Below, piece by piece: positions 10,969-38,953 of a stretch of 64,000 nt of DNA. The stretch is from assembly GCF_009931435.1 (NCBI RefSeq), contig NZ_CP043414.1. One strand, 5' to 3'. The DNA comes from Escherichia coli. Its GTDB lineage: Bacteria > Pseudomonadota > Gammaproteobacteria > Enterobacterales > Enterobacteriaceae. A program made the position numbers and the translations under genes. The first letter of the stretch is position 1. The number at the start of each line of letters is the position of its first letter. The notes beneath the pieces were generated by a model. That model saw nothing but the letters and a program-made list of their open reading frames with translations, had not been told where the DNA came from and searched no databases.

Positions 10969-11075
10969 CATGCCGGATGCGGCGTGAACGCCTTATCCGT
11001 CCTACAAAATAGTGCAAATTCAATATATTGCACCATCCTCGTAGGCCTGATGAACGTAGCGTATCAGGCTATCAT
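10969..11075. repeat. BIME / REP palindromic units
   Basis: tgccggatgcggcgtgaacgccttatcc ... gtaggcctgatgaacgtagcgtatcaggc, canonical REP consensus in inverted pair. Confidence 0.85.
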
Positions 11076-15392: not shown

Positions 15393-15425
15393 TACGGCGT
15401 AGACTCATGTCTACGCCGTATTAAT
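15393..15425 (+). terminator. rho-independent terminator after fldA
   Basis: atacggcgtagac tcat gtctacgccgtat perfect 13-bp stem followed by taat. Confidence 0.65.
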
Positions 15426-15592
15426 AGATAATGCCAATCAAAATAATTGCTACAAATTTGTAACTTTTGCCGTGGTACCTGTACAATGTTCCGGTGTTCA
15501 AGTGGCCTTGCCGTTGTAAATGTAAGCTGAGCCACGTTTTTATTAACAATATTTGCCAGGGACTTGTGGTTTTCATTTAGGCGTGGCAATTC

Positions 15593-15611
15593 TATAATGA
15601 TACGCATTATC
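15593..15611. promoter_or_regulatory. Fur box overlapping the uof/fur promoter (autoregulation)
   Basis: tataatgatacgcattatc matches 16/19 of GATAATGATAATCATTATC; overlaps a TATAAT -10 element and the uof start. Confidence 0.7.
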
Positions 15612-15683
15612 TCAAGAGCAAATTCTGTCACTTCTTCTAATGAAGTGAACCGCTTAGTAACAGGACAGATTCCGCATGACTGA
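15597..15683 (+). CDS. uof: upstream-of-fur leader ORF Uof (28 aa)
   Basis: Not in ORF track. ATG 15597 to TGA 15681-15683 translates MIRIISRANSVTSSNEVNRLVTGQIPHD; stop overlaps the fur start (ATGACTGA). Confidence 0.8.
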   Translation: MIRIISRANSVTSSNEVNRLVTGQIPHD

Positions 15684-16122
15684 TAACAATACCGCCCTAA
15701 AGAAAGCTGGCCTGAAAGTAACGCTTCCTCGCTTGAAAATCCTGGAAGTTCTTCAGGAGCCGGACAACCATCACGTCAGTGCGGAAGATTTATACAAACG
15801 TCTGATCGATATGGGTGAAGAAATTGGTCTGGCTACGGTTTATCGCGTACTGAACCAGTTTGACGATGCTGGTATCGTCACCCGCCACAATTTTGAAGGC
15901 GGTAAATCCGTATTTGAACTGACACAGCAACATCACCACGATCACCTGATCTGCCTCGACTGCGGTAAGGTTATCGAATTTAGTGATGATTCCATCGAAG
16001 CGCGTCAGCGTGAAATCGCCGCAAAACATGGCATTCGCCTGACTAACCATAGTCTCTATCTTTACGGTCACTGTGCCGAAGGCGATTGCCGCGAAGATGA
16101 GCACGCGCACGAAGGCAAATAA
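15676..16122 (+). CDS. fur: ferric uptake regulator Fur
   Basis: ORF track 15676..16122, 148 aa; HHHDH and CxxC metal-binding motifs. Confidence 0.97.
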   Translation: MTDNNTALKKAGLKVTLPRLKILEVLQEPDNHHVSAEDLYKRLIDMGEEIGLATVYRVLNQFDDAGIVTRHNFEGGKSVFELTQQHHHDHLICLDCGKVIEFSDDSIEARQREIAAKHGIRLTNHSLYLYGHCAEGDCREDEHAHEGK

Positions 16123-16140: not shown

Positions 16141-16165
16141 AGCCAACCTGCGGGTTGGCTTTTTT
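16141..16165. terminator. terminator between convergent fur and chiQ
   Basis: agccaacc tgcg ggttggct followed by ttttt. Confidence 0.75.
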
Positions 16166-29688: not shown

Positions 29689-29765
29689 GGCTACGTAGCT
29701 CAGTTGGTTAGAGCACATCACTCATAATGATGGGGTCACAGGTTCGAATCCCGTCGTAGCCACCA
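29689..29765 (+). tRNA. metT: tRNA-Met (CAU, elongator)
   Basis: 77-nt cloverleaf ggctacgtagctcagttggttagagcacatcactCATaatgatg...cgtagccacca with encoded CCA. Confidence 0.97.
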
Positions 29766-29773
29766 TCTTTTTT

Positions 29774-29858
29774 GCGGGAGTGGCGAAATTGGTAGACGCA
29801 CCAGATTTAGGTTCTGGCGCCGCAAGGTGTGCGAGTTCAAGTCTCGCCTCCCGCACCA
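29774..29858 (+). tRNA. leuW: tRNA-Leu (UAG)
   Basis: 85-nt gcgggagtggcgaaattggtagacgcaccagattTAGgttctgg... long variable arm, CCA end. Confidence 0.97.
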
Positions 29859-29881
29859 TTCACCAGAAAGCGTTGTACGGA

Positions 29882-29956
29882 TGGGGTATCGCCAAGCGGT
29901 AAGGCACCGGTTTTTGATACCGGCATTCCCTGGTTCGAATCCAGGTACCCCAGCCA
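29882..29956 (+). tRNA. glnU: tRNA-Gln (UUG)
   Basis: 75-nt tggggtatcgccaagcggtaaggcaccggtttTTGataccgg...ccccagcca. Confidence 0.97.
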
Positions 29957-29990
29957 TCTTCTTCGAGTAAGCGGTTCACCGCCCGGTTAT

Positions 29991-30065
29991 TGGGGTATCG
30001 CCAAGCGGTAAGGCACCGGTTTTTGATACCGGCATTCCCTGGTTCGAATCCAGGTACCCCAGCCA
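29991..30065 (+). tRNA. glnW: tRNA-Gln (UUG)
   Basis: Identical 75-nt copy of the UUG tRNA-Gln. Confidence 0.97.
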
Positions 30066-30080
30066 TCGAAGAAACAATCT

Positions 30081-30157
30081 GGCTACGTAGCTCAGTTGGT
30101 TAGAGCACATCACTCATAATGATGGGGTCACAGGTTCGAATCCCGTCGTAGCCACCA
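30081..30157 (+). tRNA. metU: tRNA-Met (CAU, elongator)
   Basis: Second 77-nt copy identical to metT. Confidence 0.97.
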
Positions 30158-30205
30158 AATTCTGAATGTGTCGAATGCGTTCGGCAAATTCACAAACCAA
30201 TTTGT

Positions 30206-30280
30206 TGGGGTATCGCCAAGCGGTAAGGCACCGGATTCTGATTCCGGCATTCCGAGGTTCGAATCCTCGTACCCCAGCCA
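30206..30280 (+). tRNA. glnV: tRNA-Gln (CUG)
   Basis: 75-nt tggggtatcgccaagcggtaaggcaccggattCTGattccgg...ccccagcca. Confidence 0.97.
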
Positions 30281-30317
30281 ATTTATTCAAGACGCTTACC
30301 TTGTAAGTGCACCCAGT

Positions 30318-30392
30318 TGGGGTATCGCCAAGCGGTAAGGCACCGGATTCTGATTCCGGCATTCCGAGGTTCGAATCCTCGTACCCCAGCCA
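30318..30392 (+). tRNA. glnX: tRNA-Gln (CUG)
   Basis: Second identical CUG tRNA-Gln copy. Confidence 0.97.
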
Positions 30393-31866: not shown

Positions 31867-33291
31867 ATGACCAAAAAACTCCATATTAAAACCTGGGGCT
31901 GTCAGATGAACGAGTACGATTCATCGAAGATGGCCGATCTGCTGGATGCCACCCACGGCTATCAACTGACCGACGTGGCGGAAGAAGCGGATGTGCTGCT
32001 GCTGAACACCTGCTCAATCCGCGAGAAGGCTCAGGAAAAAGTCTTCCATCAGTTGGGTCGCTGGAAACTGTTAAAAGAGAAGAATCCAGACCTGATTATC
32101 GGCGTCGGCGGCTGCGTGGCATCGCAAGAAGGCGAGCACATTCGCCAGCGCGCCCACTATGTTGATATTATTTTTGGGCCGCAAACGCTGCACCGTCTGC
32201 CGGAGATGATCAACTCCGTACGCGGCGACCGCAGCCCGGTTGTAGATATCAGCTTTCCGGAAATCGAGAAGTTTGACCGTCTGCCGGAACCGCGTGCCGA
32301 AGGACCAACCGCGTTTGTCTCCATCATGGAAGGCTGCAATAAATATTGCACCTACTGTGTGGTGCCTTACACCCGTGGTGAAGAGGTAAGCCGTCCTTCC
32401 GACGATATTCTGTTTGAGATTGCCCAGCTTGCGGCTCAGGGCGTGCGTGAAGTCAACCTGCTCGGTCAGAACGTGAACGCCTGGCGTGGTGAGAACTACG
32501 ACGGCACCACCGGATCGTTTGCCGATCTGCTGCGTCTGGTTGCGGCGATCGACGGGATCGATCGTATTCGCTTTACCACCAGCCATCCGATCGAATTCAC
32601 CGACGATATCATCGAAGTGTACCGTGACACGCCGGAGCTGGTGAGCTTCCTGCATCTGCCGGTACAGAGCGGTTCCGATCGCATTCTGAACCTGATGGGA
32701 CGTACCCATACAGCGCTGGAGTACAAAGCGATCATCCGTAAACTGCGTGCGGCGCGTCCGGATATTCAGATCAGTTCTGACTTCATCGTTGGCTTCCCTG
32801 GCGAAACCACCGAAGACTTCGAGAAAACGATGAAGCTGATTGCCGACGTCAATTTCGACATGAGCTACAGCTTTATCTTCTCTGCACGTCCGGGTACGCC
32901 AGCCGCCGATATGGTTGATGATGTTCCGGAAGAAGAGAAGAAGCAGCGTCTGTATATTCTGCAAGAGCGCATTAATCAGCAAGCGATGGCATGGAGCCGC
33001 CGTATGCTCGGCACCACCCAGCGTATTCTGGTAGAAGGTACATCGCGTAAGAGCATCATGGAGCTTTCCGGTCGTACTGAAAATAACCGCGTGGTCAACT
33101 TCGAGGGCACACCGGATATGATCGGTAAATTCGTCGATGTAGAAATTACCGACGTCTACCCGAACTCTCTGCGCGGTAAAGTGGTGCGAACTGAAGATGA
33201 AATGGGTCTGCGCGTGGCAGAAACACCGGAATCGGTGATTGCCCGTACCCGCAAAGAAAATGACCTTGGCGTGGGTTATTATCAGCCGTAA
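31867..33291 (+). CDS. miaB: tRNA-i6A37 methylthiotransferase (radical SAM)
   Basis: ORF track 31867..33291, 474 aa; CxxxCxxC radical-SAM motif (CNKYCTYC) and N-terminal cysteine cluster. Confidence 0.96.
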
Positions 33292-37875: not shown

Positions 37876-38784
37876 ATGCAATTACGTAAACCTGCCACAG
37901 CAATCCTGGCCCTGGCGCTTTCCGCAGGCCTGGCACAGGCAGATGACGCCGCCCCGGCAGCGGGCAGTACGCTGGACAAAATCGCCAAAAACGGTGTGAT
38001 TGTCGTCGGTCACCGTGAATCTTCAGTACCTTTCTCTTATTACGACAATCAGCAAAAAGTGGTGGGTTACTCGCAGGATTACTCCAACGCCATTGTTGAA
38101 GCAGTGAAAAAGAAACTCAATAAACCGGACTTGCAGGTGAAACTGATTCCGATCACCTCACAAAACCGTATTCCGCTGCTGCAAAACGGCACTTTCGATT
38201 TTGAATGTGGTTCAACCACCAACAACGTCGAACGCCAAAAACAGGCGGCTTTCTCTGACACTATTTTCGTGGTCGGTACGCGCCTGCTGACCAAAAAAGG
38301 CGGCGATATCAAAGATTTTGCCGACCTGAAAGGCAAAGCCGTAGTCGTTACTTCCGGCACTACCTCTGAAGTTTTGCTCAACAAACTGAATGAAGAGCAA
38401 AAAATGAATATGCGCATCATCAGCGCCAAAGATCACGGTGACTCTTTCCGCACCCTGGAAAGCGGTCGTGCCGTTGCCTTTATGATGGATGACGCTCTGT
38501 TAGCCGGTGAGCGAGCGAAAGCGAAGAAACCAGACAACTGGGAAATCGTCGGCAAGCCGCAGTCTCAGGAAGCCTACGGTTGCATGTTGCGTAAAGACGA
38601 TCCGCAGTTCAAAAAGCTGATGGATGACACTATCGCTCAGGTGCAGACCTCCGGTGAAGCGGAAAAATGGTTTGATAAGTGGTTCAAAAATCCAATTCCG
38701 CCGAAAAACCTGAACATGAATTTCGAACTGTCAGACGAAATGAAAGCACTGTTCAAAGAACCGAATGACAAGGCACTGAACTAA
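37876..38784 (+). CDS. gltI: glutamate/aspartate ABC transporter periplasmic binding protein
   Basis: ORF track 37801..38784; start placed at ATG 37876 (MQLRKPATAILALALSAGLAQA signal peptide) with aaggag upstream, 302 aa. Confidence 0.94.
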   Translation: MQLRKPATAILALALSAGLAQADDAAPAAGSTLDKIAKNGVIVVGHRESSVPFSYYDNQQKVVGYSQDYSNAIVEAVKKKLNKPDLQVKLIPITSQNRIPLLQNGTFDFECGSTTNNVERQKQAAFSDTIFVVGTRLLTKKGGDIKDFADLKGKAVVVTSGTTSEVLLNKLNEEQKMNMRIISAKDHGDSFRTLESGRAVAFMMDDALLAGERAKAKKPDNWEIVGKPQSQEAYGCMLRKDDPQFKKLMDDTIAQVQTSGEAEKWFDKWFKNPIPPKNLNMNFELSDEMKALFKEPNDKALN

Positions 38785-38789
38785 TTACA

Positions 38790-38941
38790 AGAACCAGGGG
38801 CGGAAATTCCAGCCCTCTCGATTGTTACGTAGCACGGACAGACTATACGCCTGATGGTCGTTCCCCATCGGGCCTGAAAACCGCAATACGCTGGGTAACA
38901 ATCTTCGAGGGTAGCAGTTAACGCTGCTACCCTCTTTTTTC
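38790..38941 (+). ncRNA. sroC: sRNA SroC region (gltI 3' end / gltI-gltJ spacer), ending at an intra-operon terminator
   Basis: 169-nt spacer between gltI and gltJ ending in gagggtagcag ttaacg ctgctaccctc + T7 (38907..38941); 5' boundary not determinable from sequence alone. Confidence 0.5.
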
Positions 38942-38953
38942 TGGAGTAGATTT

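Follow-up and report, generated by a model that had tools for sequence, protein, structure and literature searches.

The gene fur, in the 64,000-nucleotide stretch of Escherichia coli DNA analysed here (the window), is preceded by a short frame whose stop codon overlaps the fur start codon and whose own start codon lies within a Fur box. The questions raised by this locus are what the frame is, whether the translation of fur is coupled to it, and what the Fur box at its start controls. We put the probability at about 90% that the frame is uof, the leader ORF of E. coli fur, embedded in the fur promoter and operator, with the coupling to fur and the control by RyhB and MiaB being those described in the literature.

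The identity of the frame could be settled in several ways. An ORF ending in a TGA that overlaps the fur ATG had been picked out in a sequence-only reading, and it matches the letters of the window base for base. From 15590 onward the sequence runs ...TTCTATAATGATACGCATTATCTCAAGAGC..., and the codon listing gives an ORF from the ATG at 15597-15599 to the TGA at 15681-15683, 5 nt inside fur, with the product MIRIISRANSVTSSNEVNRLVTGQIPHD. Its absence from the ORF track had been put down to its size, correctly, since it falls below the default 60-aa listing threshold. A profile search assigned the product to the NCBIfam equivalog NF011344, ‘fur leader peptide’ (85.2 bits against a cutoff of 71), a 28-position model to whose positions 1-28 residues 1-28 of uof align end to end. 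At the homologous coordinates, the K-12 MG1655 annotation has uof (b4637), ‘RyhB-regulated fur leader peptide’. On sequence comparison the window is K-12 without differences from about 15522 through the fur start, and a single substitution relative to K-12 was seen about 65 nt upstream of the uof ATG.

A 751-bp segment surrounding the site found matches in 5424 of the 5426 complete E. coli genomes, with 100% identity to strain R32_14_1F and about 98.5% to most other E. coli, and for a 121-bp core the identity reaches 99% or more in 5096 of the 5424. The RefSeq record of R32_14_1F annotates ‘uof: fur leader peptide’ at exactly homologous coordinates, in the neighbourhood ybfF-ybfE-fldA-uof-fur-chiQ-chiP. 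Among the matches listed, sampled down the whole ranking of E. coli genomes, uof was annotated in every row. In one complete E. coli genome the region of the fur leader and fur is present a second time, on a plasmid. Comparison with the described uof-fur arrangement, which had been suggested as a check, thus finds the peptide, the overlap, the Fur box, the UCA codon 6 and the gene order all shared with K-12. The uof-fur leader of E. coli is already known and already annotated, and to have noticed it here was correct but ordinary. The features of the locus are collected in the table.

Table. Features of the uof-fur leader, in window coordinates
Feature	Position	Strand	Evidence
Upstream sigma-70-like promoter candidate, TTGTAA-18-TACAAT	15458..15487	+	promoter scan, 9/12
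fur promoter Pfur: -35 TTTTCA, 17-nt spacer, -10 TATAAT	15570..15598	+	promoter scan, 10/12
Predicted three-part imperfect RyhB duplex stretch	15579..15630	+	pairs RyhB nt 37-76, -23.2 kcal/mol
Fur box (operator), TATAATGATACGCATTATC	15593..15611	.	16/19 to consensus
uof ORF (fur leader peptide)	15597..15683	+	28 sense codons + stop; K-12 b4637 identity, NCBIfam NF011344, RefSeq annotation
uof codon 6, TCA (Ser), reported to need MiaB-modified tRNA-Ser	15612..15614	+	codon list; PMC7466049, PMC11448259
Leader RNA hairpin in uof codons 11-17, UCACUUC/7-nt loop/GAAGUGA	15628..15648	+	minimum-energy folds
Weak fur Shine-Dalgarno AGGA, 10 nt before ATG	15662..15665	+	sequence reading; anti-SD duplex -4.0 kcal/mol
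fur start codon overlapped by uof stop, ATGACTGA	15676..15683	+	sequence reading
fur CDS, 148 aa	15676..16122	+	ORF list, RefSeq annotation

The start of uof lies within the fur promoter. The promoter scan gives TTTTCA-17-TATAAT as the best sigma-70-like match of the region, and from the position of the -10 element the Pfur start would be expected near 15605, inside uof. The Fur box, scored against the 19-bp consensus GATAATGATAATCATTATC, is the sole match with three or fewer mismatches on either strand of the 64-kb window; shuffled sequences gave 0.03 such matches expected by chance, with any match appearing in three of 100 shuffles. It covers both the perfect TATAAT (15593-15598) and the uof ATG, so that a 16/19 match over the -10 element and the uof start was found just where it had been placed. 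Published work has the Pfur start sites falling within the uof ORF, Puof upstream of uof, and the Fur box over the Pfura -10 (PMC6191717, PMC7867234), and three promoters are reported to feed ybfE-fldA-uof-fur (PMC4161252). The upstream candidate, with a start at about 15494 judging from its -10 element, is possibly Puof, the promoter of the transcripts that carry the uof start codon.

Since the Pfur start sites lie inside uof, Pfur transcripts cannot encode full-length uof, and since these transcripts do not have the uof AUG, repression through the Fur box and uof-fur coupling act on different transcripts. The gene and the mechanisms named in the sequence-only reading, autoregulation through the Fur box among them, are supported, with one correction. 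The operator does lie over a -10 element, but this is the -10 of Pfur, whose transcripts start inside uof, and so the box exerts no control over uof translation. Thus the Fur box at the uof start codon is a DNA-level operator of Pfur, and coupling applies only to transcripts begun further upstream, at the Puof, fldA or ybfE promoters.

No terminator was seen between uof and fur, either by reading the sequence or in the promoter/terminator scan. By eye, a 9-bp hairpin with a poor T tail, GGCGTAGAC-TCAT-GTCTACGCC, is visible just after fldA (15398-15421, plus strand); it could be a leaky terminator, which would fit co-transcription of fldA and fur. A classical fur terminator, AGCCAACC-TGCG-GGTTGGCT followed by T6, can likewise be made out at 16141-16165 on the plus strand, and was not listed by the consensus scan.

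In Vecerek et al. 2007, as relayed in passages of PMC7534054, PMC12683245 and PMC11550727, efficient translation of fur is linked to the 28-aa uORF uof, and the same three sources state that RyhB blocks uof initiation, so lowering Fur synthesis. The coupling of fur translation to the upstream frame, which had been thought probable, agrees with these reports on the identical K-12 sequence (PMC7534054, PMC12683245). The Shine-Dalgarno elements of uof and fur are both weak (anti-SD duplexes of -3.6 and -4.0 kcal/mol, with 9-nt spacing), and this weak pair is compatible with a need for coupling without deciding the matter. Folding of the leader indicated no significant global structure (z = -1.2 and +0.09), and the minimum-energy fold leaves the fur start only loosely paired.

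The comparative survey used one genome per species, anchored on the Fur protein, and yielded 80 Enterobacterales loci. TATAATG is kept in 72 of these, within a conserved promoter/operator block, TCTATAATGA(G/T)ACGCATT, and ATGACTGA is kept in 77, even where no more than 2-6 codons of the upstream frame are open. Both non-fur frames of ATGACTGA contain a TGA, so an upstream frame that extends as far as fur necessarily terminates in an overlap. Because the motif is also kept in loci without an upstream ORF, the overlap alone is no evidence of coupling, and it may exist for the sake of fur itself.

The fate of the ORF opened by TATAATG was tabulated for 73 sequences, namely the window and the 72 TATAATG loci. 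It ends on the ATGACTGA overlap in 37 (the window and 36 loci, among them Escherichia, most Citrobacter, Enterobacter, Kosakonia, Kluyvera, Pluralibacter, Phytobacter, Leclercia, Pseudescherichia and Siccibacter) and stops upstream of fur in 24 (for example Salmonella enterica subsp. arizonae, C. sedlakii, Klebsiella oxytoca, Raoultella, Atlantibacter and Pantoea). In seven it ends at an alternative ATGA overlap in the other frame (Mangrovibacter, Cedecea and others), in four it runs in frame into fur without a stop (Buttiauxella and Dryocola among them), and in one, from Enterobacter asburiae, the overlapping stop is lost. The uof overlap arrangement is therefore found in only about half of the 80 Enterobacterales loci, and is missing from Salmonella, Klebsiella, Raoultella and many other genera. 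The sequence-only reading had looked to closely related genomes for the ORF and its start codon, and there the outcome is mixed: Escherichia and most Citrobacter and Enterobacter carry the ORF, whereas Salmonella, Klebsiella and Raoultella have only a truncated version, uncoupled from fur. In four loci, from Enterobacter sp. R1, Buttiauxella and Dryocola (L057, L058, L060 and L063), the ATG of TATAATG lies about 66-69 nt upstream of fur and in frame with it; if this ATG were used, Fur would gain an N-terminal extension of 22-23 aa.

Six further contigs (L084-L089) encode a 150-aa Fur, which we take to be the S. enterica protein, and have leaders near-identical to that of the subsp. arizonae record. 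In all six, this Salmonella-type leader has a 16-codon uORF (MIRIILSAISVTSLMK) that stops 30 nt before the fur ATG. The uORF is uncoupled because the hairpin loop is 1 nt shorter, which shifts the frame and leaves the stem intact.

Selection on the peptide was assessed in the indel-free 28-codon class, comprising 22 distinct sequences. The pN/pS was about 0.7 for uof; read in its two alternative frames this DNA gave 0.57 and 1.23, while the value for fur from these taxa was 0.015. No purifying selection on the uof peptide was detectable in this sample. The comparative data suggest that it is the act of translating uof that matters, its amino-acid sequence appearing not to. Codon 6 is TCA only in Escherichia, most Citrobacter and Pseudescherichia, with CCA in Enterobacter. 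The uof frame itself is free of stops in all 37 overlap-class sequences, where the other two frames carry 1-6 stops, and the step from the 28- to the 29-codon class is exactly 3 nt (-79 versus -82), the frame being preserved in about eight further lineages. The stop-free frame and the 3-nt length difference would favour some selection for an open frame, though weakly, given the shared ancestry of the sequences.

What is most widely conserved in the leader is of another kind. An alignment of 64 Enterobacteriaceae leaders has three strongly conserved blocks: the -35 region GTTTTCATTTAG, the -10 element with the Fur box, and AACAGGACAGATTCCGCATGAC, which is the fur ribosome-binding region and nearly invariant between genera. 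GTTTTCATTTAG and TCTATAATGA are among the best conserved blocks of these leaders, and the Fur box is conserved as TATAATGA(T/G)ACGCATTA in most Enterobacteriaceae. The leader hairpin, with arms UCACUUC (15628-15634) and GAAGUGA (15642-15648), recurs at the homologous position in most Enterobacteriaceae, even where the uof frame is lost. Two stem positions show compensatory double switches, from U-A to C-G and from A-U to G-C, as in GCUCC/GGAGC of Atlantibacter and GCUCA/UGAGC of Cedecea.

A covariance model of the hairpin recovers the leader in genera close to E. coli, including Klebsiella and Raoultella, and misses divergent genera. The alignment built with this model also drew in reverse-strand and spurious matches, and was replaced. 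In the homology-anchored register test, the per-sequence shuffle p was modest (median 0.25). We regard the hairpin as a putative structural element of the leader, supported but not proven, and its switches may trace to few events. No Rfam family covers the fur leader, and just three sub-threshold, chance-level matches to Rfam came up nearby. Elsewhere in the window, gathering-level Rfam matches on the plus strand correspond to the sroC sRNA (38780-38942), a cluster of seven tRNA genes (29689-30389) and the ES036 (CssrF) sRNA (11006-11048).

With this pattern of conservation, it is possible to regard the uof frame as largely an evolutionary by-product of TATAATG, the hairpin and the fur ribosome-binding region, with ribosomes that initiate directly at fur on the short Pfur transcript making most of the Fur. 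Any translation of uof in E. coli would then be a minor, lineage-restricted addition and not the reason for which the DNA is conserved. The pN/pS of uof, no different from that of the other frames and set against the far lower value for fur, fits such an account, as do the Pfur start sites inside uof (PMC6191717, PMC7867234). TATAATG is widely kept, yet its ORF reaches the overlap in only 36 loci and stops upstream in 24; the frame-shifting 1-nt changes sit in the hairpin loop and spare the stem; and the tail of the peptide, ATGQIPHD, persists in leaders that have an in-frame stop at -22 and whose frame is therefore open from -19 only. However, experiments on the exact sequence, cited in passages of PMC7534054 and PMC6191717, report ribosome binding at the uof start, coupling, and effects of RyhB and of compensatory mutations, and a dedicated Puof promoter has been reported (PMC6191717, PMC7867234). 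The frame that stays open in every overlap-class sequence while the other frames do not, and the leader-length differences of exactly 3 nt that keep it, also speak against a by-product. Taken together, we consider this account unlikely.

Keeping to uof as a translated leader ORF of E. coli, we would suggest only tentatively, and at somewhat less than even odds, that the overlap coupling may be confined to one set of lineages (Escherichia, most of Citrobacter and Enterobacter, and relatives of these), the peptide itself being under no selection. The wider conservation would then be that of the promoter/operator, the hairpin and the fur ribosome-binding block, and RyhB and MiaB control of Fur would differ between E. 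coli and Salmonella. The 1-nt loop change that uncouples the Salmonella uORF would imply such a difference in post-transcriptional Fur control. In the literature searched we found no description of a lineage-restricted overlap, of the missing peptide constraint, of the conserved hairpin or of the uncoupled Salmonella leader. The comparative result amounts to a modest caution against transferring the E. coli uof/RyhB/MiaB model to Salmonella or Klebsiella.

For the pairing with RyhB, the query sequence was checked against the K-12 ryhB annotation. Computed with the single-stranded region of RyhB only, the predicted core duplex joins GAGCAA (15616-15621) and UGUC (15626-15629) to RyhB nt 38-47, including G44/C45, at about -12 kcal/mol. 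The extended duplex of -23.2 kcal/mol spans the uof start and requires opening of the RyhB terminator stem, in keeping with PMC3018821, where the published site is said to overlap the RyhB terminator and not to be reproduced by prediction tools. Among background windows of the 64 kb, 30% of those of 30 nt equal the core energy and 63% equal the start-region energy, and 34% of those of 50 nt equal the whole uof-start stretch (15585-15635). Elsewhere, the homologous stretch pairs poorly with RyhB (median -7.8 kcal/mol), reaching -10 kcal/mol or better in 12 of 81 cases. By energy alone, RyhB pairing at uof cannot be told from chance, and the sequence neither confirms nor refutes it. Folding RyhB and the leader as whole molecules was abandoned, since the resulting duplexes (-50 kcal/mol, with huge loops) were unrealistic.

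The strongest predicted RyhB site of the locus is at 15741-15760 (plus strand), in fur codons 22-28, where CUGGAAGU...GAGC pairs with RyhB nt 44-47 and 53-60 at -17 to -18 kcal/mol, among the best 3% of the background. We judged this site to be probably a chance match, as its synonymous positions vary freely between genera. It does bear on a different account of the regulation, in which RyhB would act on fur chiefly elsewhere than at the uof start, at the core 15616-15630 or in the fur CDS, and through mRNA decay. RyhB is reported to require G44/C45 and to destabilise the short Pfur transcript, which has no uof AUG, and not the uof-fur transcript (PMC6191717). On that short transcript only the core of the predicted uof duplex survives, and the fur CDS site also uses G44 and C45. 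The core is nevertheless at background level, the CDS site is only marginally above chance (z = -2.1), quite apart from its variable synonymous positions, and published work, in passages of PMC7534054, attributes RyhB repression to blocked uof initiation. We consider it improbable that RyhB acts chiefly away from the uof start. The reported effect of RyhB on the short transcript, together with the fact that transcripts of the main Fur-regulated promoter do not carry the uof start, may limit the share of Fur that is made through coupling.

That the genuine ORF is instead the 39-codon frame from the TTG at 15564, which shares the uof frame and is what the mechanical ORF list gives when frames of at least 20 aa are listed (15564..15683), is very unlikely: the 28 positions of NF011344 match residues 1-28 end to end, both K-12 and RefSeq annotate the ATG start, passages of PMC7534054 describe a 28-aa product, and across genera the in-frame upstream extension opens at widely differing positions, with the TTG not conserved. 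This candidate was rejected on the profile match and the unconserved TTG.

With uof as the 28-codon leader ORF, the locus would work as follows. Iron-loaded Fur bound at 15593-15611 would occlude Pfur, as the position of the box over the -10 suggests, and so repress transcription of its own gene; the transcripts that Pfur does make begin a few bases downstream of the -10, inside uof, and would be without the uof AUG. On longer transcripts, from Puof or by read-through from fldA or ybfE, the AUG at 15597 would open the 28-codon frame. Ribosomes translating uof would terminate at the UGA, 5 nt past the fur AUG, and in the coupling described in the literature this would help initiation of fur at its weak and distant Shine-Dalgarno. 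When iron is scarce, RyhB with Hfq would, again following the literature, pair around the uof start and early codons, block uof initiation and lower Fur synthesis. Published work on codon 6 would add a dependence of uof decoding on the Fe-S enzyme MiaB, through UCA.

Near the UCA codon stand ATA (codon 2) and AGA (codon 7), both of them rare codons in E. coli (uof 15597-15617, plus strand). ‘Multiple rare codons’ in uof are mentioned in PMC11550727, and passages of PMC7466049 and PMC11448259 state that the UCA at codon 6 makes uof decoding MiaB-dependent. The gene for this Fe-S methylthiotransferase, miaB, is itself in the window, 16 kb from uof (31867-33291, plus strand; TIGR01574, 738.7 bits). 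We take its position relative to uof to be the normal K-12 gene order, with no sign of functional linkage.

The locus illustrates that a single stretch of DNA can combine the roles of promoter, operator, start codon and sRNA target. It is also a reminder that short ORFs fall below ORF-track thresholds.

Compared with known systems, the closest is uof-fur of E. coli K-12 itself (b4637/b0683; Vecerek, Moll and Blaesi 2007, as cited in passages of PMC7534054 and PMC6191717). The nucleotides are identical from upstream of the -35 through the fur start, the 28-aa peptide, the ATGACTGA overlap, the Fur box, the UCA codon 6 and the order ybfE-fldA-uof-fur-chiQ-chiP are all common to both, and there is no difference inside the element. 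The Salmonella-type fur leader (L028, L084-L089) shares the promoter, the Fur box (16/19), the hairpin stem, the fur ribosome-binding region and ATGACTGA, but has the 16-codon uORF with no stop/start overlap with fur. The leaders thrL and ivbL, with the sRNA GcvB (PMC7534054), are alike in that initiation at a short uORF is the control point at which an Hfq-dependent sRNA acts for the downstream gene; they work by transcription attenuation, sensing charged tRNA, whereas uof is described as acting by translational coupling through the stop/start overlap (PMC7534054). Finally, a Fur box over the -10 is shared with other promoters under Fur autoregulation. Here too a palindromic operator of 19 bp (16/19) overlaps the -10 hexamer, but its bases also serve as the first five codons of an ORF, one that is read solely from transcripts of upstream promoters.
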